Of a DNA stretch of 11,936 nt, positions 1 to 11,936 are shown in pieces. The DNA is taken from the IMG/VR virus record IMGVR_UViG_2681813004_000015, positions 1-11,936 of that record; one strand, 5' to 3'. Made by a program: the position numbers and the translations under genes. The notes beneath the pieces are model-generated. The model ran no database searches. It saw nothing but the letters and a program-made list of their open reading frames with translations, and had not been told where the DNA came from. The stretch's first letter is position 1, and each line of letters starts with the position of its first letter. The stretch is from a virus. Its lineage: Duplodnaviria > Heunggongvirae > Uroviricota > Caudoviricetes.

Positions 1-1
1 A

Positions 2-28
2 TTAGCCTGTTGGGGGATAGATCAGTGA
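2..28 (+). CDS. 3' end of upstream gene, possibly endolysin (last 8 codons only, ...LACWGIDQ)
   Basis: Frame 2 is open from the window edge to TGA at 26-28. That stop overlaps the GTG start of Rz (GTGA), the arrangement expected at an endolysin/Rz junction. Too short to identify the product. Confidence 0.3.
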
Positions 29-492
29 GCAGAGTCGCCGCGATTATTTATGCTCTGGTTATCTGCATCATCGTCTGCCTGTCGTGGGCGGTCAATCATT
101 ATCGTGATAACGCCATCGCCTATAAAGAACAGCGTGATAAAAAAGTCAGTGAGCTGAAGCAGGCGACCGCCACCATAACTGACATGCAGCAGCGCCAGCG
201 TGCTGCTGATGCACTCGATGCTAAATACACGAAGGAGTTAGCTGATGCGAAAGCTGAAAATGAAACTCTGCGCGCTGATGTTGCCGCTGGTCGTAAGCGC
301 CTGCGGGTCAATGCCAGTTGCTCCGCAGCCGTGCGTGAAGCCACCGGACCCACCAGCGTGGATAATGCAACCAGCCCCCGACTGGCAGACACCGCTGAAC
401 GGGATTATTTCACCCTCAGAGAACGGCTGATGACAATGCAAAAGCAACTGGAAGGGGCACAGGAGTATATCCGCACTCAGTGCATTAAGTAG
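25..492 (+). CDS. Rz: Rz i-spanin (inner-membrane spanin of lysis cassette)
   Basis: Translation resembles lambda Rz along its length: N-terminal TM helix ([19 protein letters not shown]) and a charged coiled-coil periplasmic domain. GTG at 25 sits where lambdoid Rz starts; the ORF track offers TTG at 10 as an alternative. Confidence 0.88.
245..430 (+). CDS. Rz1: Rz1 o-spanin lipoprotein, embedded in the +1 frame of Rz
   Basis: 61-aa ORF lying wholly inside Rz in another frame. Signal peptide with lipobox LVVSAC followed by a proline-rich mature region ([27 protein letters not shown]), the hallmark of lambda-type Rz1. Confidence 0.88.
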
Positions 493-534
493 CCTTTTTA
501 TCGTGGTAAACATTTCGCAGGGTATGAGGTATTT

Positions 535-885
535 ATGCCATCACTAATCCCACGTGCCTGCCGTAAGCGTGGATGTGCAGGTACAACCACAGACAGTTCT
601 GGTTACTGCGATAAACATCGTGGCGAAGGATGGGTACAGCATCAACGCGGACTGAGTCGCCACCAGCGTGGCTATGGCTCGAAATGGGATGCCATACGTG
701 CGCGCATACTGAAGCGTGATAATCATCTGTGTCAGAACTGCCTGCGCAATGGGAGAGCCGTTGAAGCCAGAACTGTGGACCACATCATTCCGAAAGCTCA
801 TGGTGGCACGGATGCAGACAGTAACCTGCAGAGTCTGTGCTGGCCCTGCCATAAAGCAAAAACAGCGCGCGAACGCATCAATTGA
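535..885 (+). CDS. HNH endonuclease (phage packaging-associated)
   Basis: Cys pairs (CRKRGC, CQNC, CWPCH) plus H-N-H core (DHIIPKAHGG...N...CWPCH). GAGG RBS ~6 nt upstream of ATG. Position directly upstream of terS is typical of HK97-like packaging modules. Confidence 0.88.
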   Translation: MPSLIPRACRKRGCAGTTTDSSGYCDKHRGEGWVQHQRGLSRHQRGYGSKWDAIRARILKRDNHLCQNCLRNGRAVEARTVDHIIPKAHGGTDADSNLQSLCWPCHKAKTARERIN

Positions 886-1031
886 TAACAGTTCCCATCT
901 GTAGGGGAGGGGCGGGTCAAATCTCTGCAGCCCTGGCTGCTCAGTACCGCCGCCTGACCTTTCCTCGCATCGCCGCAGGTTCGAAAACTTTTTTGGAAAT
1001 GTGAACAAACGATTGATAGGTAAGACCGATT

Positions 1032-1514
1032 ATGTCAGGACCCCCGAAAACCCCGCCACGCCTGCATTTGATACGAGGCAACCCCTCAAAGCGCCCCGTT
1101 AAAGACCCCAAAAAAACCGCTAAAAAGGATGAAAAAGGTCTTCCTAAAATTCCGCAGCATTTAGGGGCACAGGGGAAGTACTGGTTCAGGCGAATGGCGG
1201 AAGAGCTGAATGCGGAAGGGATCATTTCTCAGCTTGATGCGCGTGCGCTCGAGTTACTGGTGGAAGCCTACACCGAATATCGGCATCACTGCGAAACACT
1301 GGATGTTGAGGGGTATACCTATCGCACGGAAACGCAGAGTGGTGATGTACTGATTAAGGCGCACCCCGCGGCGGCAATGAAAGCGGATGCCTGGAAGCGG
1401 ATCCGGGCGATGCTTGCAGAGTTTGGTATGTCACCGGCAAGCCGGGCGAAAGTAAATACCACCGGACCGGATGATGTTGATCCGCTGGCGGAGCTTTTAA
1501 AAGCGAGAGACTGA
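1032..1514 (+). CDS. terS: terminase small subunit (P27-family-like)
   Basis: 160-aa product with basic N-terminus and the conserved middle region of P27-type small terminases. Stop overlaps the terL start (TGATG, 1512-1516), indicating translational coupling. Confidence 0.8.
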   Translation: MSGPPKTPPRLHLIRGNPSKRPVKDPKKTAKKDEKGLPKIPQHLGAQGKYWFRRMAEELNAEGIISQLDARALELLVEAYTEYRHHCETLDVEGYTYRTETQSGDVLIKAHPAAAMKADAWKRIRAMLAEFGMSPASRAKVNTTGPDDVDPLAELLKARD

Positions 1515-2707
1515 TGGCAAAAGTGGCTGACGGGATCCGCTACGCCGAACGTGTTGTTGCAGGAGAAATTGTCGCTGGCGAATTTGTCCGTCTGGCCTGC
1601 CAGCGTTTTCTTGATGATCTGAAGTACGGCGAAGAGCGGGGGATTTATTTCAGTGAACCCCGTGCGCAGCACATCCTGAATTTCTACAAATTTGTGCCCC
1701 ATGTAAAAGGGGCGCTGGCAGGTCAGCCCATTGAGTTGATGGACTGGCATGTTTTTATCCTCATAAATATTTTTGGTTTTGTCATTCCGCTGGTGAATGA
1801 AGAGACCGGGGAAGTTGTCATGCGCAGCGATGGCAGCGGACGCCCGGTGATGGTGCGCCGGTTCCGGACGGCGTACAACGAAGTCGCCCGTAAAAACGCA
1901 AAATCAACCCTGTCATCGGGTATCGGTCTTTATATGACGGGGGCAGATGGTGAAGGCGGTGCTGAGGTGTATTCAGCCGCAACCACGCGTGACCAGGCCA
2001 GAATCGTGTTTGAAGACGCCAAAAATATGGTCAGAAAAGCCCGGTCGACACTCGGGCGGTTGTTTGATTTCAACAAGCTGGCGATTTACCAGGAGCAGAG
2101 CGCATCAAAATTTGAACCGCTTTCCTCGGATGCAAACAACCTGGACGGTCTGAACATCCACTGCGCCATTATTGATGAGCTGCATGCACATAAAACCCGC
2201 GACGTGTGGGACGTTCTGGAAACGGCAACCGGTGCCCGTCTGCAGTCCCTGTTATTTGGTATCACCACGGCGGGCTTTAACAAGGAAGGAATTTGTTACG
2301 AGCAACGCGATTACGCCATCAAGGTATTGCGAGGCTATAACAGTGACGTGGAGGGCGCGGTAAAAGACGACTCCTACTTTGCGATTATTTACACGCTCGA
2401 TGAGGGAGATGATCCGTTTGATGAAACGGTCTGGCAGAAAGCGAATCCGGGCCTGGGCATCTGTAAACGCTGGGATGATCTGCGTCGTCTGGCGAAAAAA
2501 GCGAAGGAACAGGTTTCAGCGCGGGTGAATTTTTTTACCAAGAAAGTAACATCACGCCGTAACAACAGTGCGACCTGTCCTGATTTTTTTAGTAACCAAA
2601 TGAAAGAAAAAGATTTTTTCTTGTTCGTCGTTTTTGTTTTTTCTGGAAGGTTCTGGCTGTTTTCATCATTTGTGTATTGCACTGTGTATTGCAAAAACGG
2701 GTTATAA
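1514..2707 (+). pseudogene. terL: terminase large subunit, 3'-truncated: ATPase domain only, terminase-like to about nt 2545
   Basis: N-terminal ~345 aa read as an HK97-family TerL ATPase domain. After ...ARVNFFTKK the frame runs through T-rich low-complexity codons (FFLFVVFVF...) into the int upstream region. No nuclease domain is present. Confidence 0.8.
2671..2693. repeat. two direct copies of TGTGTATTGCA separated by 1 nt, 20 bp upstream of int
   Basis: Exact 11-mer at 2671-2681 and 2683-2693. Lies in the AT-rich segment between the terL break and int, next to a short palindrome GAAAAAGATTTTTC at ~2607-2620. Candidate integrase arm-type or regulatory sites. Confidence 0.4.
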
Positions 2708-2712
2708 ATCAC

Positions 2713-3921
2713 ATGGCGCTAAACAAACTGAGCGATAAAAAACTTCGTTCCCTGCTTGGGCGCAGGAGTGAGAGGCAGGAAACCATCGCTGATGGTAACG
2801 GGCTTTCGGTACGGGTCAGTAAATACGGATGTGTTAGTTTTGTTTTCTTTTACAGACTGGCGGGAAGGGGAACCGCGCCCATCTGGCTGACACTTGGAAA
2901 ATATCCTGATCTGAGTCTCAAATCAGCGAGAGAGATGCGCGATCAGTGTCGAACCTGGCTTGCGGAGGGCAGAGATCCACGGATTCAGATAAAAATTGAA
3001 CGGGAAGCCACTTTGCAACCTGTTACCGTTCGTGAGGCACTTGAATACTGGCTTGATAATTATGCAATGGATAAGCGTAGGGGAGCAGAACATATCAGGC
3101 AGTGCTTTGGTAAACATATTTATCCGGTGATTGGTCATGTACCACTTAGTGATTGCTCTATATCTATGTGGATCAAGTGTTTTGACAAAATAAAAAAAGT
3201 AGCACCTGTACAGGCCGGAGCTTTGTTGCGTATATCAAAACAGGCGCTTAAATTTTGTAGGGTAAGAAAATACGCGATTAGTCATGAAATTGATGATCTT
3301 GAGGTCTGTGATGTGGGAAAAAAGTCTGCGCGAAGAAGCAGGGTTTTAACAGATGATGAAATCAGAGATTTATGGCGAAGTATTAATACTGATTATGACA
3401 ATCACGAATTATCATATGAAAACCGAATTATTTTACGTTTCCTGGTAGTTTTTGGTTGTCGACTGTCAGAAGTATTACTGTCGTCCTGGGTAGAGTGGGA
3501 TTTTGATAAGAAATTATGGCGCGTTCCCGCTGATCATAGCAAAAATGGCAGGGAAATAATCAGACCGATTCCTGATGGCATGTTTAACTGGTTAGTTACG
3601 TTAAAAAAAATAACAGGTAACAAAGAAAATGTGATTGGGTTTGATATGCGTCAGTGTACGGCAAGCGTAACTATCGGTAAGACATGGAAAAGGATGAAAC
3701 ACTCGGAAAAATGGACGGCGCATGATATGCGAAGAGTGTTTGCCACAAAGCTAAGTGATCATGGTTTTGAACATAATGTGGTTGAACAGTTGCTTGGGCA
3801 CACATTAGGCGGTGTTGCCGGGGTTTATAACAGAAGTCAGTATATGGACAGAAAAAAAGAAGCTATGAACTGGTGGTACGACTATCTGAATAAGCTAATT
3901 AGTGGTGACGGTAATGATTGA
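2713..3921 (+). CDS. int: tyrosine integrase, P4-integrase family
   Basis: N-terminal arm-binding domain pattern (GLSVRVSKYG...FVFFYRL...LTLGKYPDLSLKSAREMR) and C-terminal catalytic residues (R...HDMRR...LLGH...Y). ATG at 2713 (MALNKLSD) preferred over the upstream ATG at 2677. Confidence 0.92.
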   Translation: MALNKLSDKKLRSLLGRRSERQETIADGNGLSVRVSKYGCVSFVFFYRLAGRGTAPIWLTLGKYPDLSLKSAREMRDQCRTWLAEGRDPRIQIKIEREATLQPVTVREALEYWLDNYAMDKRRGAEHIRQCFGKHIYPVIGHVPLSDCSISMWIKCFDKIKKVAPVQAGALLRISKQALKFCRVRKYAISHEIDDLEVCDVGKKSARRSRVLTDDEIRDLWRSINTDYDNHELSYENRIILRFLVVFGCRLSEVLLSSWVEWDFDKKLWRVPADHSKNGREIIRPIPDGMFNWLVTLKKITGNKENVIGFDMRQCTASVTIGKTWKRMKHSEKWTAHDMRRVFATKLSDHGFEHNVVEQLLGHTLGGVAGVYNRSQYMDRKKEAMNWWYDYLNKLISGDGND

Positions 3922-4135
3922 AATAGTTACGCGTGAAGAACTTGAAAATGATAAAACAATCGACAGGATGATTAAGGAAGATGAATGTGCATGGTTAACA
4001 GCTCTTGGCAGGAGACACAGAGCATTACTTGAAAAGGAAGGAAAATTTCCACGGAAAATATGTATTGGCCCACAAACAAAAGTCTGGCGCTTATCTGAGG
4101 TGCTGGAATGGGTAAAGGGTGAATGGAAACCCTGA
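3914..4135 (+). CDS. alpA: AlpA-family DNA-binding protein (excisionase/activator type)
   Basis: Small HTH protein with AlpA-like motif (LLEKEGKFPRKICIGPQTKVWRLSEVLEWV). ATG at 3914 overlaps the int 3' end by 8 nt. Followed by a hairpin terminator. Confidence 0.75.
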   Translation: MIEIVTREELENDKTIDRMIKEDECAWLTALGRRHRALLEKEGKFPRKICIGPQTKVWRLSEVLEWVKGEWKP

Positions 4136-4156
4136 ACTAAATTAAATGAGATATAA

Positions 4157-4185
4157 TCAACCCGTCTTTTGGCGGGTTTTTTTAT
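4157..4185 (+). terminator. intrinsic terminator after first alpA-like gene
   Basis: Hairpin AACCCG-loop-CGGGTT (4159-4178) followed by a T-run (TTTTTTTAT). Confidence 0.6.
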
Positions 4186-4198
4186 AGGTGATATTTTT

Positions 4199-4477
4199 AT
4201 GCAAAAATTTATTTATCCTACACCCGAAGAACGCATTCAGATTCTGAAAGAACATGGCGAACCGTATGATCGCCGTATACGCGAACATGAGTGTGCCAAT
4301 CGTACCGGGCTTTCAAGAAGCAGACGTTGGGTACTTGAACAGGAGGGAGCATTTCCTGCTCGTGCTCATTTAGGGAAAGTGTCTGTTTCCTGGTTGCTCT
4401 CTGATGTGCTCTGGTGGGTTATGCATCCGCCAGGAGTAAAGGAAGTAAACAGCCCATACAAAAACGCCAATAAGTAA
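4199..4477 (+). CDS. second AlpA-family DNA-binding protein (paralog)
   Basis: Motif LEQEGAFPARAHLGKVSVSWLLSDVLWWV parallels the upstream AlpA-like gene. ATG at 4199 has an AGGTGA RBS and lies just past the preceding terminator; the track start at 4169 falls inside the hairpin. Confidence 0.65.
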   Translation: MQKFIYPTPEERIQILKEHGEPYDRRIREHECANRTGLSRSRRWVLEQEGAFPARAHLGKVSVSWLLSDVLWWVMHPPGVKEVNSPYKNANK

Positions 4478-4486
4478 TTACCGACA

Positions 4487-4516
4487 ACCCCGCACCACGC
4501 AATGCGGGGTTTTTTG
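4487..4516 (+). terminator. intrinsic terminator after second alpA-like gene
   Basis: Stem ACCCCGCA / TGCGGGGT (4487-4494 / 4503-4510) with 8-nt loop, followed by TTTTTTG. Confidence 0.7.
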
Positions 4517-4534
4517 TATGTGAGGTAGAAAGTG

Positions 4535-5128
4535 ATGAATAAAAATATTGCCGCGACGGGCAAGGGTGACGCACGTCATATGAAAAAATTCTGTGATATT
4601 CGTGATCTGGTCGTTCTGCGCTTTGATAGTGTGAACGTTCGCGTGGTGTATCTGAACGGCGATCCGTGGTTTGTTGGCGCTGATGTGTGTGCGGCGCTGG
4701 AAATTAGCAACGTTACCGATGCTGTTTCAGTTCTGGATAGCGATGAGGTAATGACCCTAGCTTTAACCGAGGGTCATTCAGGTAAGCGTGGTGGTGCCAG
4801 AAGTTGGAATGTTGTATCAGAATCAGGTTTTTACAAGTTGATCGCCAGAAGTCGCAAAGCTGTTAATCCTGGCACGTTCGCCCATCGTTTCAGTAATTGG
4901 GTATTCAGAAATGTGATACCGGGTATCAGAAAAACGGGGGGTTATGGTATCCCGTGGGGCGCATTACAGGATTTTTCCCGCCGCAAAGAGCAATACCAGA
5001 TAAGTGCCAGCGAGAAGGGGAGGGAGCTACAGGCATGTAAGCGCAAAAAGCGTGAGCTGGAGGAAGAAGAAAAAAGGCTGATACGTGAATACCAGCCTGA
5101 GTTTTACTTTGGTGAGCGTATTCAGTAA
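4535..5128 (+). CDS. Bro-N domain protein (antirepressor-like) with C-terminal charged coiled-coil tail
   Basis: N-terminal region matches the Bro-N pattern (VRVVYLNGDPWFVGADVCAALEISNVTDAV...SGFYKLIARSRKAVNPGTFAHRFSNWVFRNVIPGIRKTGGY). GAGG RBS 9 nt upstream of ATG 4535. C-terminus is K/E-rich. Confidence 0.82.
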   Translation: MNKNIAATGKGDARHMKKFCDIRDLVVLRFDSVNVRVVYLNGDPWFVGADVCAALEISNVTDAVSVLDSDEVMTLALTEGHSGKRGGARSWNVVSESGFYKLIARSRKAVNPGTFAHRFSNWVFRNVIPGIRKTGGYGIPWGALQDFSRRKEQYQISASEKGRELQACKRKKRELEEEEKRLIREYQPEFYFGERIQ

Positions 5129-5282
5129 CCACACGCGGTGTTGATTATACGGTGCATCGTGTTGACCGGGAAGCTACCCACCAGCAAGGCAAAATCTTCT
5201 GCTAAAAATGACATATGGCCAGTCGTCCGGAAAGCATGAAATTTTACAAAAATGGAAAATGAAGATTTTTATTGTGCTGGTG

Positions 5283-5318
5283 GGTAAAAACAAAAAGCGC
5301 CCCGTTACCGGAGCGCCC
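5283..5318 (-). terminator. intrinsic terminator on the minus strand
   Basis: Minus-strand hairpin (GCGCUCC / GGGGCGC, loop GGUAAC; plus 5297-5316) followed by UUUUUGUUUUU (plus 5286-5296). Confidence 0.5.
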
Positions 5319-5360
5319 TTGCGAACAATTAACCTACTGCGCAAAAAATGAATCTGTGCG
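5286..5360 (-). ncRNA. candidate small RNA (~75 nt) bounded by promoter-like element and terminator; hypothetical
   Basis: Minus strand has an extended -10 (TGATATAAT, plus 5366-5374) and the terminator at 5283-5318 about 75 nt downstream. No convincing ORF or RBS in between. Purely structural inference. Confidence 0.25.
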
Positions 5361-5365
5361 GGGGG

Positions 5366-5395
5366 ATTATATCAACCGTGGTCGAAATGACCATA
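5366..5395 (-). promoter_or_regulatory. sigma70-like promoter with extended -10 on the minus strand
   Basis: Minus strand reads ...TGGTCA-(15/16 nt)-TGATATAAT; perfect TATAAT preceded by TG at the extended -10 position; weak -35. Confidence 0.35.
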
Positions 5396-5410
5396 GTTGC
5401 AGGATAACAG

Positions 5411-5442
5411 GCAAAACAAAGGCCACCCGCTACGGTGGCCCC
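5411..5442 (-). terminator. intrinsic terminator downstream of the minus-strand repressor gene
   Basis: Perfect 7-bp stem GGCCACC / GGTGGCC (5421-5427 / 5434-5440) with 6-nt loop; on the minus strand followed by UUUGUUUUG. Confidence 0.55.
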
Positions 5443-5542
5443 TCGACACAAGCACACGTTATCCCCAACGCATGAGCATAACCAACAATGCCACATTTAC
5501 GGCTGGTGGGCAATGTGATCAGTGTGCTGGCTTGCTGGTGGG

Positions 5543-5848
5543 TTATTCCTGCTCTTTGGCCTTGCGCCGCTGGAGTTCTTCACGCGCGACGGCAACAAGT
5601 TGCCCGATCTCCTCGGCAGCTTTGACTCCGATTTTTTCCACCTGAGCCAGTGCATCAAGTGAAGAAACTAGGGGATTTTCTCCGCTTCCTTCTGCCTGGC
5701 GGCGGGCGATCTCTCCGCGCATGGCGGTTACTATGAATCCGGCGTTGCTTTCGCCGTCCAATTTTACGGATTCCATGCCCTCCATAACATCGTGGGGAAC
5801 TCGGACGGTGGTCAATTGTGATTTAGCGTTTTTGTTGGTAGTCGCCAT
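5543..5848 (-). CDS. putative ribbon-helix-helix (Arc/Mnt/CopG-like) transcriptional repressor
   Basis: 101-aa ORF with GGAG RBS 8 nt upstream of ATG (5848). Segment RVPHDVMEGMESVKLDGESNAGFIVTAMRGEI fits the RHH beta-strand/helix pattern of Arc/Mnt. Transcribed divergently from the replication operon across an operator-bearing promoter. Confidence 0.6.
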   Translation of the reverse strand: MATTNKNAKSQLTTVRVPHDVMEGMESVKLDGESNAGFIVTAMRGEIARRQAEGSGENPLVSSLDALAQVEKIGVKAAEEIGQLVAVAREELQRRKAKEQE

Positions 5849-5868
5849 AACTGAAACTCCTCAAATTT

Positions 5869-5948
5869 GGTGTGTTTCAGTATACACAAAAAAGAAATAC
5901 AAAAAAGGCTTGACGTGTGTTTCACTCCTAAATAACATGAAACACACC
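5869..5948 (+). promoter_or_regulatory. promoter for the rightward operon overlapped by operator repeats (GTGTGTTTCA motif)
   Basis: -35 TTGACG (5910-5915), 17-bp spacer, -10 TAACAT (5933-5938). Motif GGTGTGTTTCA at 5869-5879, GTGTGTTTCA at 5915-5924 and its inverted copy TGAAACACACC at 5938-5948; the latter two form a palindrome bracketing the -10. Confidence 0.5.
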
Positions 5949-6044
5949 AAAGGTTTTATTGAAATACAAACGACGAAACCCCGCACTGTTGGAGCAGTAA
6001 CGGGGCTTCTAACCACCAACGATAGCAAGAGTATCGAGGTAGCT

Positions 6045-6248
6045 ATGAGAAATCATACCACACACCCGCAAGGGCGGGACTCGCACAACCTGAATAAATA
6101 CATCTGGCGTTTTATCGCCCTGAGCACGGCACAACCGCGCGTGATTACCATTGAGGCCACCAGCGAACAGGAAGCACGCCAGCAATCTCCTGATGGCTGT
6201 GTGATGGTATTCGCCTCCCGTATTCGTCAGGAGGTGCACCATGATTAA
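6045..6248 (+). CDS. hypothetical small protein (67 aa), first gene of the rightward operon
   Basis: ATG 6045 preceded by GAGGTAG RBS; the longer track ORF from 5721 overlaps the repressor gene and promoter. Stop overlaps the next start. Confidence 0.5.
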   Translation: MRNHTTHPQGRDSHNLNKYIWRFIALSTAQPRVITIEATSEQEARQQSPDGCVMVFASRIRQEVHHD

Positions 6249-6453
6249 TCTGTCACTTACCGACCTTAACCGCATTCAGTTTCGTGAGAAATTTACCGGG
6301 CAGCTACTGGTCAATGTGGATAAAGGTCGCGTGGTGTGTAATTACCACCTGCCAGATGAAGCAATTGTCGCAACAAGGGAATCATTACAGGAACTCGCAG
6401 AACGTGCCGGAATGATTAATGCGAATATTCAGGGGGTGAGCCATGTGCAATAA
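6241..6453 (+). CDS. hypothetical small protein (70 aa)
   Basis: AGGAGG RBS immediately upstream of ATG 6241; overlaps the previous ORF by 8 nt and the next by 11 nt, indicating coupling. Confidence 0.55.
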   Translation: MINLSLTDLNRIQFREKFTGQLLVNVDKGRVVCNYHLPDEAIVATRESLQELAERAGMINANIQGVSHVQ

Positions 6454-6772
6454 CACCCGTCCGGACGCAGCCGCCGAAGCTATCAGAACGCTGATGCACG
6501 CGCTGATTGATATTTCATGCACGGCAGCAACCGCAGAAAAACACATTACCAGAGAGACCGAAGCTATCAGAACGCTGATGCACGCGCTGATTGATATTTC
6601 ATGCACGGCAGCAACCGCAGAAAAACACATTACCAGAGAGACGGAATATACAGGGGCAATAATCCCGCATTCGCTGGTCTACACACAGCTTACCGCTGAT
6701 ATGGCGCTGAATGAGGCTAAAGCCATCCTGATTGCTGATTGTGAAAATGGCGGGGGCGATTATGCGAAATAA
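6443..6772 (+). CDS. hypothetical protein (109 aa) containing a 28-residue exact tandem repeat
   Basis: GGGGTGA RBS upstream of ATG 6443. Residues EAIRTLMHALIDISCTAATAEKHITRET occur twice in tandem, encoded by an 84-bp direct repeat. Confidence 0.55.
   Translation: MCNNTRPDAAAEAIRTLMHALIDISCTAATAEKHITRETEAIRTLMHALIDISCTAATAEKHITRETEYTGAIIPHSLVYTQLTADMALNEAKAILIADCENGGGDYAK
6476..6643 (+). repeat. 84-bp tandem direct repeat, two copies, in-frame within a small ORF
   Basis: 6476-6559 and 6560-6643 are identical except for the final base (83/84). Confidence 0.95.
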
Positions 6773-6980
6773 ACATGATATTGAAGACCTGGCATTTGAA
6801 GCCCTGCACTCTGCGAAAAAAATCAGGGAAGTCGTCAATATGTGGATGAACAGCCTTAGCACCGATAAATCCGATAGCAGAGAAGAAATTCTTATTTCTT
6901 TGTTGTTAGACCTGGCAAATACACAGGTTTCTCTGACATCTGATATTGAGCTCGCCGCTAAAAAGCTGCCTCTGGAGTAA
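6762..6980 (+). CDS. hypothetical small protein (~72 aa)
   Basis: ATG 6762 with G-rich RBS; overlaps the stop of the preceding ORF. The track ORF starts earlier at 6732, so the start is uncertain. Confidence 0.45.
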   Translation: MRNKHDIEDLAFEALHSAKKIREVVNMWMNSLSTDKSDSREEILISLLLDLANTQVSLTSDIELAAKKLPLE

Positions 6981-6986
6981 AAAAAC

Positions 6987-7301
6987 ATGAAAAAGAAAAA
7001 TTCTGGCTTTACTGCCAGCGGTCACGCTCGGCCTGAAATCCGCCCCGGTGATATTTTCCGGGATAAATACGGCAGCACGATAACGATTAAAACCGTCGAT
7101 GATTTTCGTGTGACCTATATCCGCGAAGGTTATGCGCATCCCTGCGTGTCGTCACATATGCGCTTTGACAGGGAGTTCACCTTGGTAAGCAAAGCACCAC
7201 CAGCAGAATTAAGCGACATCGACAGAATCATGCGCGTTACAGGAATGGAACGCATTAAGGCAGTACGTGAAATTATTCGTGAACGGGGAAAGGCAAAATG
7301 A
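6987..7301 (+). CDS. hypothetical protein (104 aa), translationally coupled to the replication protein gene
   Basis: GGAG RBS upstream of ATG 6987; its stop overlaps the start of the downstream 707-aa gene (ATGA at 7298-7301). Confidence 0.55.
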   Translation: MKKKNSGFTASGHARPEIRPGDIFRDKYGSTITIKTVDDFRVTYIREGYAHPCVSSHMRFDREFTLVSKAPPAELSDIDRIMRVTGMERIKAVREIIRERGKAK

Positions 7302-9421
7302 AGCGCGCACCAAACTTAAAGCACCAGCCAGCCGACAAAATGACGGAGGTTATCATCTTTGCGGGTAGTGATGCGTGGAGCCATGCGAAAGAGTGGCAGG
7401 AATGGGCAGGTAAACATATTGCCGCCGACAATGTGCCGCCTGTCGTTCTGTCAGATGAACACCTGAAAGATATTACTGGTTATCAAATTATTGATGATAG
7501 CCGTCAGTGTGTGCGTATTTACCGCGCAGGGCACATCACTGAACGTAGCCTCACACAGATCGTCACGTTGCTGGCTGTGGCTGGCGTGAAGACCGTATAC
7601 GAATACGCGGGGATAACTGACACCAGCCCGGCGGATTTATCCGACCAGTTGCCTCGCCTCAAAGACGAATACGAGCGCGGGGAAAGTCTGGTGTTGCCCT
7701 TAAAGAAAAAAATCACAGAAAGCCCGGGTGATGATGAATTAAAGCCCCGCGTTGAAAGCCGCGCCGATGGTGTTTTCTGGGTAACGCCAAAAGTGGATAA
7801 GCAGTCAGGCGAAATTATCCGGCCTGAAACGTGGTTATGCTCCCCGCTTGAGCTACTGGGAACGGGGACAATCGGCAAAGAGCATTACCGCGTGATGCGC
7901 TGGAAAAAGCCAGCAAACCATGACGTCATCACGATGGCGGTTCCGTGCGGTGGCATTGGCGACCGTGACGGCTGGCGGCTGCTGAAAGACCACGGACTGA
8001 ACGTGACAACCAACGGTAAATACAGGGCTATCCTGGCTGACTGGATGCAGTTAAGCGGAAACCATGAGGAATGGCAGTTAAGCACAACAACGGGCTGGCA
8101 TTTTGGCGCGTACATCATGCCGGACGGTTCGGTCATTGGTGATTGCGAAAAGCCAGTCCTGTTTACCGGAAAAACGGCTGCCGTTAATGGTTATTCCGTG
8201 GCAGGAACGGCGGAGGGCTGGCGCGATACCGTGGCGCGACTGGCTGGTGGTAATCCGTCCATGATGCTGGGTGTGGCGGTATCGCTATCCGCACCATTAA
8301 TCGGGCTGGTGGGTGCTGACGGCTTCGGGGTACATCTTTTCGAACAGTCATCAGCAGGGAAAACCACCACACAGAATATCGCATCCAGTTTATGGGGGGA
8401 GCCGGACGCGCAGCGGCTGACCTGGTACGGTACAGCGTTAGGTATCGCCAACGAGGCAGAGGCACACAACGACGGGCTGTTACCCCTGGATGAAATAGGC
8501 CAGGCCGGAAACGCGCGGGAGGTGTCCACATCGGCCTATACGCTGTTTAACGGTTCCGGGAAATTACAGGGGGCGAAGGACGGCGGCAACCGGGAGATAA
8601 AACACTGGCGAACGGTGGCAATCAGTACCGGAGAAATGGACGTTGAAACATTCCTCAAAACGGAAGGGATAAAAGTCAAGGCGGGGCAGCTTGTCCGCCT
8701 GCTTAACGTGCCAATGGAAAAAGCCACACAATTTCACGAATACAGCACCGGAAAGGCGCACGCAGACGCGTTAAAGGATGCCTGGACAGAAAATCACGGG
8801 GCGGCGGGGCGTGAATGGGTTAAATGGCTGGCAGACCATCAGCAGGAGGCAAAGGACACGGTAAGGACATGCCGTGAGCGGTGGCGCAACCTGATACCGG
8901 AGAGCTACGGCGAACAGGTTCACCGTGTGGGGGAGCGATTTGCCATACTGGAGGCCGCGCTTGTGCTTTCAGGTCATGTTACTGGCTGGGATGAGCAGGA
9001 ATGCCGCGATGCCATACAGCATAATTTTAATGCCTGGGTGAAGGAGTTCGGCACGGGTAACAGGGAGTTTAAACAGATGGTTGAACAGGCAGAGGCTTTT
9101 TTAGCGTCGTTCGGATTCAGCAGATACCTTCCGTGGCCCAACACCGACGAGCGTGATTTACCGATTAAAGAGCTTGCCGGATACAGAAAGGGGAGTATCA
9201 GAAACGAAGATGACGAGTTCCGTTTTTACACGTTCCCGCATGTATTTGAGGGTGAGATAGCACAGGGATTTAATCCGTCTCACTTTGCCCGCGTGTTGAG
9301 TGCTGCCGGAATGCTGGAAGCGGGTAACGATCGCCGTTACAAGAAAAAGGCGCTCGGCAAAATTGGGGGGAAGCAGCATGTTTTTTACGTGCTGATGTTC
9401 CAGCCTGAGGCAGAAGATTAA
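7298..9421 (+). CDS. replication protein: P-loop NTPase of the DUF927 / primase-helicase type (PICI pri-rep-like)
   Basis: 707-aa ORF with Walker A (FEQSSAGKTT) and Walker B (GLLPLDEIGQ) motifs. General resemblance to DUF927-type replicative helicase/primase proteins of satellites and plasmids. Immediately followed by iterons. Confidence 0.8.
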   Translation: MKRAPNLKHQPADKMTEVIIFAGSDAWSHAKEWQEWAGKHIAADNVPPVVLSDEHLKDITGYQIIDDSRQCVRIYRAGHITERSLTQIVTLLAVAGVKTVYEYAGITDTSPADLSDQLPRLKDEYERGESLVLPLKKKITESPGDDELKPRVESRADGVFWVTPKVDKQSGEIIRPETWLCSPLELLGTGTIGKEHYRVMRWKKPANHDVITMAVPCGGIGDRDGWRLLKDHGLNVTTNGKYRAILADWMQLSGNHEEWQLSTTTGWHFGAYIMPDGSVIGDCEKPVLFTGKTAAVNGYSVAGTAEGWRDTVARLAGGNPSMMLGVAVSLSAPLIGLVGADGFGVHLFEQSSAGKTTTQNIASSLWGEPDAQRLTWYGTALGIANEAEAHNDGLLPLDEIGQAGNAREVSTSAYTLFNGSGKLQGAKDGGNREIKHWRTVAISTGEMDVETFLKTEGIKVKAGQLVRLLNVPMEKATQFHEYSTGKAHADALKDAWTENHGAAGREWVKWLADHQQEAKDTVRTCRERWRNLIPESYGEQVHRVGERFAILEAALVLSGHVTGWDEQECRDAIQHNFNAWVKEFGTGNREFKQMVEQAEAFLASFGFSRYLPWPNTDERDLPIKELAGYRKGSIRNEDDEFRFYTFPHVFEGEIAQGFNPSHFARVLSAAGMLEAGNDRRYKKKALGKIGGKQHVFYVLMFQPEAED

Positions 9422-9442
9422 CCCCCTGTGTGAGGTGAAAAG

Positions 9443-9568
9443 TTGCGGGTTATGCGGGTTATCTTGTGTATAAGTGCATTAACTGTATGAATAAAAAGGA
9501 AATCAATAACCCGCACGTAACCCGCAAAACGGCAGTTATAACCCGCAAAAGTGCGATTATAACCCGCA
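9443..9568. repeat. iteron-type replication origin: six copies of ATAACCCGCA-like 10-mer flanking an AT-rich tract
   Basis: Direct copies at 9506-9515, 9517-9526 (GTAACCCGCA), 9538-9547 and 9559-9568, with start-to-start spacings of 11, 21 and 21 bp. Two inverted tandem copies at 9443-9462. AT-rich tract 9463-9505 between them. Confidence 0.65.
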
Positions 9569-9631
9569 GAATTTCACCGTAAGGGTGTAAACAAGCGTAA
9601 CAATCAACGTTAAAACCGGAGAACAGACAGC

Positions 9632-10057
9632 ATGACAGCACAGATAGCGGCTTACGGGCGGCTGGTGGCTGACCCGCAGTTAAAGACCACCAGCAAAGGG
9701 ACACAAATGGCGATGGCGAGTATGGCGGTTCCCCTGCCGTGCAGCCAGGCAGATGACGGAACGGCGACGATGTGGTTATCCGTCCTGGCGTTTGGCAGAC
9801 AGGCCGACGCACTGGCCAGACACCACAAAGGCGAACTGGTGAGCGTGGCGGGTAACATGCAGGTAAGCCAGTGGACAGGCCAGAACGGCGAAACGCGGCA
9901 GGGCTGGCAGGTCATCGCAGACAGCGTAATCAGTGCGCGGACAGTGCGACCGGGCGGCAAAAAAGGCCAGCAGGGCCAGGCTACTGACGCACTGAACAGG
10001 GCAAAACAACAGACAGGCCAGCACGATGATCCGTACGGGGACGGGATACCGTTTTAA
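9632..10057 (+). CDS. ssb: single-stranded DNA-binding protein (short phage/plasmid-type SSB)
   Basis: OB-fold pattern parallels E. coli SSB (GRLVADPQLK..., WLSVLAFGRQADALARHHKGELVSVAGNMQVSQWTGQNGETRQGWQV), a G/Q-rich linker, and C-terminal tail ...DDPYGDGIPF resembling the canonical DDDIPF tip. Confidence 0.82.
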   Translation: MTAQIAAYGRLVADPQLKTTSKGTQMAMASMAVPLPCSQADDGTATMWLSVLAFGRQADALARHHKGELVSVAGNMQVSQWTGQNGETRQGWQVIADSVISARTVRPGGKKGQQGQATDALNRAKQQTGQHDDPYGDGIPF

Positions 10058-10072
10058 GCAGTGAGGTACAGC

Positions 10073-10354
10073 ATGATTAAAGACAGCAAAGCGGAAGAAC
10101 TGGAGGCTAAAGGGCTGTACCGGAGAGCGGCGGCACGTTGGGCTGATGTTATGTGGCTGGTGAGCACTGACAAGGAGCGCGAACAAGTGGCAAAGCGTCG
10201 CGCGGAATGTATCCGTAAGGCAGCGCGCCAACCAGTCATACCGGATAATTTCGGAATACTGAAAGAGGCCATAAACCGCACACATACCGGGATGGGCTTA
10301 CAGAAACCTGGCGGTGAGATGTTCAGGAACTACCCGAAAAAAAGGGATAATTGA
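10073..10354 (+). CDS. perC: PerC-family transcriptional regulator (Pch-like)
   Basis: N-terminus MIKDSKAEELEAKGLYRRAAARWADVM... matches the PerC/Pch signature. GAGG RBS 6 nt upstream of ATG 10073; the track start at 10061 is GTG. Confidence 0.75.
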   Translation: MIKDSKAEELEAKGLYRRAAARWADVMWLVSTDKEREQVAKRRAECIRKAARQPVIPDNFGILKEAINRTHTGMGLQKPGGEMFRNYPKKRDN

Positions 10355-10399
10355 TAACGGTTGTTAACTGTTTCTGGTATCGTGGCAGCAGGAGGAAAC

Positions 10400-10648
10400 A
10401 TGCCAGTGACATTTGAAGAAGTCCAGCAACATAAAAAGTTTCATGGTTTTGATGATCTGGAAACCACGACAGCAAAAAAATATCGCCGTCTGCTTTCTTC
10501 CGATGCGTTGTTTGTTGTGGATCATCATGATTTTCTGCGCAGCTCACTGACCGGGGAAATTTTCGCAACCAACCGTGAGCAGGTGGAAGCGATGATCGAA
10601 TATCTGTGGAAAATAAGGCGCAGAATGCGTGATCCCGTGAAACGGTAG
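10400..10648 (+). CDS. hypothetical small protein (82 aa) downstream of perC
   Basis: Strong AGGAGG RBS 3 nt upstream of ATG 10400; followed by a strong terminator. A second near-identical copy lies at 11165-11413. Confidence 0.6.
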   Translation: MPVTFEEVQQHKKFHGFDDLETTTAKKYRRLLSSDALFVVDHHDFLRSSLTGEIFATNREQVEAMIEYLWKIRRRMRDPVKR

Positions 10649-10652
10649 AATA

Positions 10653-10687
10653 ATAATGGCCTGGTATTTTCCAGGCCATTATTTTTA
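10653..10687. terminator. strong bidirectional intrinsic terminator
   Basis: Perfect 10-bp stem AATGGCCTGG / CCAGGCCATT (10655-10664 / 10671-10680), loop TATTTT, T-run downstream and A-rich tract upstream. Confidence 0.75.
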
Positions 10688-10735
10688 GAAGTGTTGCTGA
10701 ATGAACATTGCTTTTTTCAGTTCATTTTCTGACAT
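10685..10735 (-). pseudogene. remnant of the 157-aa minus-strand gene: first 14 codons only, then deletion junction
   Basis: 10693-10749 matches 11880-11936, which holds the RBS and first codons (MSENELKKAMFIQQ) of the intact gene at 11449-11922. Here the frame ends after 16 codons at the junction with the terminator. Confidence 0.7.
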
Positions 10736-10809
10736 AGTTCGTTCCTCCTGATTAACGAGCAGAAAATGTACGGAACAGCTTATTTATTTTTTCAGGTTTT
10801 GTAAATTAT

Positions 10810-10839
10810 TTGTTCGTGGTTGTTCCAGGTTGTTCACTG
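10810..10839. repeat. three helically phased TTGTTC repeats (10-bp period)
   Basis: TTGTTCGTGG / TTGTTCCAGG / TTGTTCACTG at 10810, 10820 and 10830. On the minus strand they sit just upstream of a TTTACA -35-like hexamer in the leader of the 157-aa gene. Confidence 0.45.
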
Positions 10840-10896
10840 AGCGGATCGGCATATTTTACCCGAACTGAATCATGATTATTCTCGCCCGTGGTGCCA

Positions 10897-11119
10897 GGAC
10901 GTTTGGGCTGATGTTATGTGGCTGGTGAGCACTGACAAGGAGCGCGAACAAGTGGCAAAGCGTCGCGCGGAATGTATCCGTAAGGCAGCACGCCCACCAG
11001 TCATACCGGATAATTTCGGAATACTGAAAGAGGCCATAAACCGCACACATACCGGGATGGGCTTACAGAAACCTGGCGGTGAGATGTTCAGGAACTACCC
11101 GAAAAAAAGGGATAATTGA
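10897..11119 (+). pseudogene. 5'-truncated second copy of perC (lacks first ~21 codons, RBS and start)
   Basis: Homology to perC begins at the codon for ARWADVM. Upstream is unrelated sequence with a 1-nt insertion at the junction. Longest ORF is the internal-Met fragment 10916-11119, which carries one substitution versus copy A (Q to P). Confidence 0.7.
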
Positions 11120-11164
11120 TAACGGTTGTTAACTGTTTCTGGTATCGTGGCAGCAGGAGGAAAC

Positions 11165-11413
11165 ATGCCAGTGACATTTGAAGAAGTCCAGCAACATAAA
11201 AAGTTTCATGGTTTTGATGATCTGGAAACCACGACAGCAAAAAAATATCGCCGTCTGCTTTCTTCCGATGCGTTGTTTGTTGTGGATCATAATGATTTTC
11301 TGCGCAGCTCACTGACCGGGGAAATTTTCGCAACCAACCGTGAGCAGGTGGAAGCGATGATCGAATATCTGTGGAAAATAAGGCGCAGAATGCGTGATCC
11401 CGTGAAACGGTAG
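11165..11413 (+). CDS. hypothetical small protein (82 aa), second copy
   Basis: Same RBS and ORF as 10400-10648 with one amino-acid difference (H to N). Confidence 0.6.
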   Translation: MPVTFEEVQQHKKFHGFDDLETTTAKKYRRLLSSDALFVVDHNDFLRSSLTGEIFATNREQVEAMIEYLWKIRRRMRDPVKR

Positions 11414-11417
11414 AATA

Positions 11418-11451
11418 ATAATGGCCTGGTATTTTCCAGGCCATTTTTTTA
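11418..11451. terminator. strong bidirectional intrinsic terminator, second copy
   Basis: Stem AATGGCCTGG / CCAGGCCATT (11420-11429 / 11436-11445), loop TATTTT, T-run 11444-11450. Serves the converging genes on both strands. Confidence 0.75.
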
Positions 11452-11922
11452 GAAGTCGATCTCTGTATCGCGATTAAATTCATCGCTAAGGTAAAGTGCT
11501 TCGCTTGGGCATTTTCCGTTTTCCAGTAATGTTTCCCAGAAATCTTTATCGAAACACCCCTCAAGATACAGATAGCGGCAGATGTGAAGTAAATCACTTC
11601 GTGTCCATCCGTGCATGCTGCTACTTGTTACACCATATTCACTTTCTAGTTTATAGAATGTGAGCGCCTCCCGGTCATGCCAGGCTTTGCACAGACGATC
11701 GTATATCTTTTTAGCTTTGTTTTTAGATGTGCCGAAAAACTCTTCGTAAATTTCATGTGGGCGAGTAGGAATGCTTCCGTCGCCATCCTGCAAGAAAGGA
11801 TAAACATCTGCCTCCCAGGCATACACGTAAGAATCGCTGAACTCATCATAGTGTTTACCAAGGTGGAGAATCTGCAATCGTTGCTGAATGAACATTGCTT
11901 TTTTCAGTTCATTTTCTGACAT
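11449..11922 (-). CDS. hypothetical acidic, aromatic-rich protein (157 aa), function unknown
   Basis: Minus-strand ORF with AGGAGG RBS (plus 11931-11936) 8 nt upstream of ATG (11922). Converges on the bidirectional terminator. Rich in D/E and Y/F/W. No family recognised by eye. Confidence 0.7.
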   Translation of the reverse strand: MSENELKKAMFIQQRLQILHLGKHYDEFSDSYVYAWEADVYPFLQDGDGSIPTRPHEIYEEFFGTSKNKAKKIYDRLCKAWHDREALTFYKLESEYGVTSSSMHGWTRSDLLHICRYLYLEGCFDKDFWETLLENGKCPSEALYLSDEFNRDTEIDF

Positions 11923-11936
11923 AGTTCGTTCCTCCT

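Follow-up and report, generated by a model that had tools for sequence, protein, structure and literature searches.

A putative ribbon-helix-helix repressor/operator module with many specificity types at the replication operon of a Gram-negative phage-inducible chromosomal island

In the immI region of P22, the ribbon-helix-helix (RHH) repressors Mnt and Arc act at operators lying over two divergent promoters, one of them the repressor's own, and the target that they control is an antirepressor gene. In the SaPIs and other phage-inducible chromosomal islands (PICIs) of Gram-positive bacteria, the repressors Stl and Rpr are encoded divergently from the replication operon, between the integrase and primase sides of the island, and keep the satellite silent. 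P4 immunity is exerted at the start of an operon that runs from a division-inhibitor-like gene to the primase, where the CI RNA acts on the kil/eta ... alpha leader by premature termination. RHH dimers such as omega (pSM19035) and proteins of the CopG/ParG type bind short, non-palindromic direct or inverted repeats, cooperatively along arrays. Gram-negative PICIs are transcribed unidirectionally and their induction runs instead through AlpA, an activator of PICI genes that is required for induction of the model island EcCICFT073; their global repressor has been called 'unclear' (PMC6092414), and later work on capsid-forming and helper-embedded PICIs names none. Here we describe an 11,936-nucleotide (nt) stretch of DNA from a virus of the Caudoviricetes (IMG/VR record IMGVR_UViG_2681813004_000015, positions 1 to 11,936; the whole of it is referred to as the window), in which an E. 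coli phage satellite of the Gram-negative PICI kind encodes a 101-amino-acid (aa) RHH protein divergently from its replication operon. Comparison with 18 further loci indicates a genuine and conserved module of a putative RHH repressor and its operators, generally of a known kind but with an unusual phased architecture and many specificity types.

The gene occupies 5543-5848 on the minus strand and has an ATG start, with the Shine-Dalgarno sequence GAGGAG 8 nt upstream. A previous sequence-only reading of the window had described this open reading frame (ORF) correctly and had assigned its product an RHH N-terminus, an assignment that structure prediction supports: residues 1-55 of the AF2 (AlphaFold2) model have a predicted local distance difference test score (pLDDT) of 83, and the protein has the order of elements typical of the RHH (Arc/MetJ/CopG) fold, an N-terminal beta-strand followed by two helices. 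The modelled N-terminal domain (residues 1-52; 5693-5848, minus strand) is of the RHH fold. In the full-length model (pLDDT 80), helices span residues 19-28, 35-54 and 64-100, the last predicted with a pLDDT of up to 95; the C-terminal half (residues 53-101; 5546-5692, minus strand) is highly conserved and predicted as one long helix. Mnt, likewise, has an extra C-terminal helical domain. A scan placed an intrinsic terminator downstream of the gene (5418-5443, minus strand), with a 10-pair stem followed by a T-run.

The N-terminal 42 residues that place the protein in a described family, residues 9-50, match NCBIfam NF041551 (YlcI_YnfO_N) with 68.5 bits against a cut-off of 30 (E = 3.6e-19). 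The members after which the family is named, YlcI of DLP12 and YnfO of Qin, are without the C-terminal domain, which only the satellite proteins of this family carry, as judged from a search of 1.84 billion representatives that gave no functional lead. The corresponding genes in K-12 lie near lambdoid-prophage terminase genes and are not known to sit at a divergent promoter beside a replication operon. The protein also matches PHROG 6522 and has 235 relatives across the Enterobacterales, a few of which are labelled at source as, for instance, 'Arc-like DNA binding domain' or 'CopG'; tblastn found no relative in 50,697 phage records. A literature search on YlcI, YnfO, DUF3950 and PICIs with ribbon-helix-helix proteins revealed no functional study, and no paper was found that gives this family a function or mentions it in PICIs.

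Sequence similarity of the 101-aa protein to Mnt and Arc is not significant, and hhalign against Arc and Mnt aligned the RxP motif correctly at a low probability. PF07704 is weakly matched by 26 of 32 family members. In a profile alignment to Arc, RVPHDV falls onto RWPREV, and residues 12, 14 and 16 onto Gln9, Asn11 and Arg13, through which Arc contacts bases. Across the family alignment R16 and P18 are invariant and residues 12-15 constitute the most variable stretch, with positions 12 and 14 hypervariable. No RHH protein was matched among solved structures by the single sequence or by the profiles A1 and A3, the only, weak match of the A1 profile being the Hef helix-hairpin-helix (E = 0.011); the long helix swamped fold searches with the full-length model, which were uninformative.

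The 196-bp gap between the 101-aa gene and the operon that leads from an Icd-like gene to the primase holds three exact copies of GTGTGTTTCA, at 5870-5879 (+), 5915-5924 (+) and 5938-5947 (-), where 0.01 matches are expected; three were reached in 0 of 200 shuffles, and there is no further exact copy in the 11.9-kb window. The copies at 5915-5924 and 5938-5947 form a perfect inverted repeat with 10-nt arms and 13 nt between them (10-N13-10), which encloses the -10 of the promoter P_rep (5910-5938, plus strand; TTGACG at 5910-5915, a 17-nt spacer, TAACAT at 5933-5938), found independently by a promoter scan with a score of 9/12. This inverted repeat and this promoter are as the sequence-only reading had them, and its three copies are all there; as a count of sites, however, three fell short, since two degenerate copies, AGAAATACAA at 5893-5902 and TGAAATACA at 5960-5968, bring the total to five. 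For the outer exact copies the inverted repeat is longer, with 14 nt matching perfectly between TTTGGTGTGTTTCA (5866-5879) and TGAAACACACCAAA (5938-5951).

We refer to the five sites as putative operators O1 to O5; counted from the RHH start codon, their offsets are 22, 44, 67, 89 and 111 nt, with a period of ~22.5 bp. O1 (5866-5879, core 5870-5879, plus strand) overlaps the -10/start region (start expected near 5872) of P_rhh, the candidate promoter of the RHH gene, and O2 (5893-5902, minus strand; 7/10) is its inverted partner, 13 nt apart. Between them they enclose TATACT (5884-5879, minus strand), a -10-like hexamer that is probably part of the RHH gene's own promoter. O3 (5915-5924, plus strand) lies between the -35 and -10 of P_rep, O4 (5938-5951, minus strand; TGAAACACACCAAA is its plus-strand sequence) begins on the final base of the -10 and covers the start of transcription expected near 5945, and O5 (5960-5968, minus strand) falls in the early transcribed region. 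The design is symmetrical, in that the -10 of each divergent promoter sits inside an inverted pair of sites. As in P22 immI, the sites cover two divergent promoters, one of which is the presumed repressor's own; Mnt and Arc, however, each recognize one palindrome of 17-21 bp, whereas five non-palindromic 10-mers are found here, and their target is replaced by a satellite operon for replication and a cell-division inhibitor. The arrays read by omega, CopG and ParG are similar in that the orientation pattern of the sites varies here too, between types, but omega heptads abut while the present sites are about two helical turns apart, and the genetic context differs as well.

The 19 loci compared, the window included, come from Escherichia, Xenorhabdus, Photorhabdus, Yersinia, Serratia, Erwinia, Klebsiella, Enterobacter, Phytobacter and Cedecea. 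In every one, an operon with the icd-like gene first and the primase last is transcribed divergently from the RHH gene, and four primase architectures (DUF927, D5_N/Pox_D5, zinc-ribbon/Toprim and AAA_25) stand beside the module. A -35 (TTGAC) at offset 61 together with a TAnnnT -10 near offset 84 is present in 15 of the 19, the spacer and -10 sequences of P_rep drifting between loci, and TATAAT or TATACT occurs at offset 30-35, the position of P_rhh, in 12. Repeats recur at the same offsets in nearly all loci (~22, 44, 67 and 89, with a fifth site near 111 in the window, L007, L010 and L019), and their sequence is locus-specific; in 12 of 18 loci, none of 100 shuffles comes up to the best repeated 9-mer. 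The O2 position (offset ~44) is occupied nearly everywhere by a site with the locus's own motif. Most loci show the orientation -> <- -> <-; L006, L008 and L012 have -> -> <- <-.

Where the beta-strand differs in the residues that align with the base-contacting positions of Arc, the operators differ in sequence as well. The beta-strand QL(T/F)TVRV is common to eight loci, in five genera, and with it goes GTGTGTTTC, which is kept while the 13-nt spacer drifts freely; in the window LTTVRV goes with GTGTGTTTCA. Besides this type there are eleven others, each with its own motif at all positions; among them, KQISIRI goes with TGTGATTCA, QQLNARF (the cassette of locus L017) with TGGTATTCA, QSLTARI with GTGTAAGAC, QMISTRV with GTGTAGTCA, QALAARV with GTGTAAACA, RQKTARV with GGTGGGAGTCA and QALKARV (EcCICFT073) with GTGGGCCACAC. 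QQINARF is accompanied by TGGGATTCA, as a perfect 10-N13-10 repeat at the same place, and x-K-N-x-R-x by GGTGTGTA in a different orientation pattern. A motif derived from O4 matches O1 and O3 of its own locus at 8.1 of 10 positions and loci of other types at 6.1 of 10, as against 9.2 of 10 for loci with the same beta-strand; the observed match was reached by 0 of 10,000 permutations. Fixed positions over the conserved -35 and -10 across the loci, together with this co-variation, support the proposal, made from the window alone, that the repeats behave as RHH operators.

Natural exchanges separate the module from its surroundings. Locus L017 is close to the window in its integrase (99%), AlpA1 (97%), AlpA2 (100%) and the DNA of the C-terminal half of the RHH gene (~92%), yet the segment 5717-5944, with the RHH N-terminal domain and the operators, is only ~53% identical, and both beta-strand and motif differ. 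The exchanged segment extends over 5717-6560 and takes in the RHH N-terminal domain, operators, leader and icd-like gene, with ~45-73% DNA identity to L017 inside it and 90-100% on both flanks. In EcCICFT073 an Icd-like protein 94% identical to that of the window is accompanied by a different beta-strand and different operators, and in L002, L007 and L021 the operators of the window stand beside very different Icd-like proteins, integrases and primases. The sites consequently do not follow the type of AlpA, Icd-like protein or primase; instead, the RHH N-terminal domain and its operators behave much as an immunity region does, as one cassette of specificity that can be exchanged. Comparison of the loci indicates that this specificity cassette recombines and comes in at least 12 types, and such exchange therefore suggests that different satellites carry different specificities, that is, that they would be hetero-immune. 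The many exchangeable cassettes are a further difference from Mnt and Arc.

The counterpart in EcCICFT073, the model Gram-negative PICI, is a 59-aa YlcI/YnfO protein annotated in RefSeq (C_RS30120) and encoded divergently from the Icd-like gene (L023 8243-8653; NC_004431.1 1380242-1380652). In C_RS30120 the RHH domain is joined directly to the C-terminal tail, the whole C-terminal helix being deleted, and two GTGGGCCACAC sites, 23 bp apart, lie over the promoter. A small minus-strand ORF comes after the 59-aa gene. Locus L011 (Cedecea) matches residues 1-55 only and, with EcCICFT073, indicates that long and short RHH forms coexist in nature.

We consider it likely that the 101-aa protein is an Arc/Mnt-like RHH repressor of P_rep that acts at the phased sites and also regulates its own gene. 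From the predicted fold and the layout, conservation and co-variation observed, we infer DNA binding, repression, autoregulation, oligomerisation and a route of override, as follows. RHH dimers would probably read the non-palindromic sites of ~10 bp with their paired beta-strands placed in the major groove, and a spacing of ~22.5 bp, roughly two helical turns, would put the sites on the same face of the DNA. Occupancy of O3 and O4 (and O5) would block RNA polymerase at the -10 and transcription start of P_rep and so keep replication and the toxic Icd-like gene silent, whereas O1 and the weaker O2 around the -10 of P_rhh would serve negative autoregulation. Through the long C-terminal helix, dimers would probably assemble into higher oligomers, in the manner of Mnt, and bind the phased sites cooperatively. 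A master-repressor role like that of Stl, as the sequence-only reading had suggested, is a plausible conjecture: position and presumed role, keeping the satellite silent, are shared with Stl and Rpr, although scans of Pfam, NCBIfam and PHROGs, which did not include a direct comparison with Stl, gave no match to a helix-turn-helix or Stl family.

Induction by the helper phage acts through AlpA, which would have to override the repressor. The likeliest route would be transcription from the upstream alpA and bro genes that runs antisense through the repressor gene and on into the operon; an antirepressor would be an alternative. The idea that Bro-N serves as a general antirepressor did not hold, since the module also occurs in several loci that lack Bro-N. 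Strong plus-strand intrinsic terminators, with GC-rich stems followed by T6, stand directly after each alpA (4159-4184 and 4486-4517), so that downstream expression may need antitermination, and a plus-strand terminator scan found none between bro-N and the operon. An AlpA of Pseudomonas has been described as a processive antiterminator (PMC9371919), and this, with terminators after alpA1 and alpA2 and none after bro-N, fits transcription arriving from upstream. Taking these points together we put forward, tentatively and as the less probable case, a broader proposal: that the immunity system missing so far from Gram-negative PICIs, model islands included, is this cassette, with at least a dozen interchangeable specificities; that AlpA induces by terminator-proof antisense read-through over the repressor gene while the repressor itself is not inactivated; and that co-resident satellites are hetero-immune.

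Several observations weigh against the repressor reading. Overexpression of AlpA alone induces excision and replication of EcCICFT073 (PMC6092414), from which it follows that RHH repression is not dominant and that the RHH protein is not the sole control there. The 59-aa form without the C-terminal helix implies that oligomerisation through that helix is not essential; the monomer model does not render the beta-strand as a strand; and the -35 of P_rhh is weak, in a T-tract and not recognisable. Linkage within the cassette could, moreover, inflate the between-locus correlation of beta-strand and motif, but several sites within one locus have changed in concert, for which linkage is insufficient and a common reader with changed specificity is needed.

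It is possible, though rather unlikely in our estimation, that the RHH protein binds its sites merely as a local fine-tuner, which regulates its own gene and damps leaky Icd-like expression, while quiescence and induction are set by AlpA and upstream transcription and no Stl-like role exists. The sufficiency of AlpA in EcCICFT073, despite a short RHH homologue with operators of its own, speaks for such a role, as do the loss of induction of a capsid-forming PICI upon alpA mutation (10.1101/2022.09.08.507074) and the read-through made possible by the lack of a plus-strand terminator from bro-N to the operon. A strong, conserved promoter with sites over its -10 and start throughout the 19 loci nevertheless suggests that the promoter matters, and at least 12 specificities are typical of immunity determinants and unexpected for a minor tuner. 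Immunity based on RNA, as with CI RNA and seqA in P4, with the leader or a minus-strand small RNA (sRNA) candidate as the switch and the RHH protein as an accessory, seems improbable to us. It can draw on the conserved leader hairpins, with compensatory changes in 9 of 14 pairs, on the conservation of an sRNA-like unit (5393-5293) in L016, L017 and EcCICFT073, and on CI-like or seqA-like RNAs reported in some Gram-negative PICIs (PMC10111431), and P4 places its control at the same point of a comparable operon; here, however, a protein and putative operators take the place of the RNA, Rfam, searched with the 262-nt region at E up to 10, gave neither C4 nor IsrK, leader complementarity to the rest of the window is at chance level, no U-run follows the hairpins, and the co-variation of operator and beta-strand would be left unexplained.

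The remaining alternatives assign the repeats or the protein to other partners. In a type II toxin-antitoxin system the RHH protein would neutralise the Icd-like division inhibitor through contacts of its C-terminal domain; annotation of the neighbour as a division inhibitor and conservation of that domain would agree with this, but the genes are divergent and not co-transcribed, unlike a type II pair, a near-identical Icd-like protein in EcCICFT073 stands beside a 59-aa RHH protein without the domain, and Icd-like proteins vary freely while the domain is kept. We hold such a pairing to be very improbable. Similarly improbable is that the repeats are bound by AlpA as an activator, by the Icd-like protein or by the primase/initiator as origin iterons, the RHH protein being unrelated. 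The Icd-like protein does match PHROG 6196 (3e-45) and 1743, labelled 'transcriptional repressor', AlpA does activate PICI genes (PMC6092414), and the regular spacing does resemble iterons; yet AlpA2 is identical in L017 where the repeats differ, the repeats of EcCICFT073 differ beside its closely similar Icd-like protein, the same repeats stand beside different primases and Icd-like proteins in L002, L007 and L021, and a separate 21-bp tandem repeat (9518-9568) sits where PICI origins have been reported (PMC6092414). Iterons, AlpA sites and Icd-like sites were all disfavoured on account of these swaps. Least credible is a partition site of phased repeats with a ParG- or omega-type centromere-binding protein: the RHH proteins omega and ParG do bind arrayed short repeats, non-palindromic and oriented either way, but no locus has a ParA or ParM partner gene, the element is integrative, and the positions of the sites match those of promoter elements exactly. 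A toxin-antitoxin pair and a partition site are thus both disfavoured by the gene layout and the lack of partner genes, and repression of P_rep by the RHH protein is the reading that we retain.

Structured RNA features accompany the module on both sides. The 5' leader of the operon (5975-6036, plus strand) comprises hairpin 1 (5975-6009) and hairpin 2 (6020-6036), the latter just before the Shine-Dalgarno sequence; across 16 loci, the 9 of 14 pairs mentioned above stay paired although both partners have changed, and the single-stranded stretch between the hairpins holds an invariant UCU(A/G/U)ACCA. Rfam searches found neither C4 (RF01695) nor IsrK (RF01394) in the whole window at E up to 1 or in 5849-6110 at E up to 10, and the weak matches that did appear were rejected as artefacts of the inverted repeat. 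The leader search against the rest of the window returned only chance-level 9- to 10-mers. Downstream of the RHH gene lies a candidate sRNA of ~75 nt (5290-5393, minus strand; the RNA itself would run from 5359 to 5290), with the promoter TGGTCA-16-TATAAT (5393-5366), a strong terminator (5320-5293) and a fold z-score of -3.1; it is 89-91% conserved in L016, L017 and EcCICFT073, matched no Rfam family, and would be antisense to any bro-N read-through. In some PICIs, immunity RNAs of the P4 CI type are placed in the Bro zone (PMC10111431).

The element in the window is a helper-embedded Gram-negative PICI, with the layout and of the kind described in PMC10111431: it has an integrase, two AlpA genes, Bro-N, a DUF927 primase, SSB and PerC. 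It is probably also capsid-forming (cf. 10.1101/2022.09.08.507074). Prophage lysis, HNH and terS genes make up the left end of the window, and at 1514-2713 the satellite is seen to be inserted in a prophage terL gene and co-oriented with it; terL similarity ends at ~2542 and the integrase is next. In a near-identical genome (99.8%), RefSeq labels the same terL gene 'missing C-terminus', and capsid, prohead protease and portal genes come after the element. The region matches up to six places per E. coli genome.

On the plus strand, the integrase (2677-3921, in the orientation of terL) is followed by the two AlpA genes (3902-4135 and 4169-4477) and the Bro-N gene (4532-5128), and the minus-strand RHH gene separates these from the regulated operon (6045-9421). 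The operon consists of the Icd-like gene (6045-6248), four small ORFs, a DUF4222 gene (6987-7301) and the DUF927 primase/helicase gene (7298-9421); its genes are tightly packed, with overlapping start and stop codons, and end in the primase, in agreement with the replication operon proposed at the outset. SSB and PerC genes come after the primase. Between the primase and SSB genes lies the 21-bp tandem repeat noted above (9518-9568; 2.4 copies of TAACCCGCAAAACGGCAATTA), likely origin iterons and a better origin candidate than the operator array, PICI replication origins having been reported downstream of the primase (PMC6092414). Two duplications were also observed. An 84-bp in-frame tandem duplication (6474-6646; 2.1 copies, 98% identical) lies within a 109-aa ORF (6443-6772), in a region that differs in L017 and L016, and a tandem duplication of ~765 bp spans 10061-11413, where a PerC-like ORF and the next, 95-aa ORF (10061-10648) have near-identical second copies at 10916-11413, that of PerC being shortened at its start.

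The module sits where the field has reported no repressor, and a divergent RHH gene with promoter-covering sites in EcCICFT073 makes the repressor question experimentally accessible in an existing model. If the protein is only a local autoregulator, the finding is that of an ordinary RHH regulator. The cassette structure nevertheless predicts specificity groups among satellites that share a cell. The family, moreover, constitutes a natural series of matched RHH/operator pairs in which the reading of DNA by the beta-strand may be studied, and such pairs could be used as orthogonal repressors in engineered PICI 'drones'.

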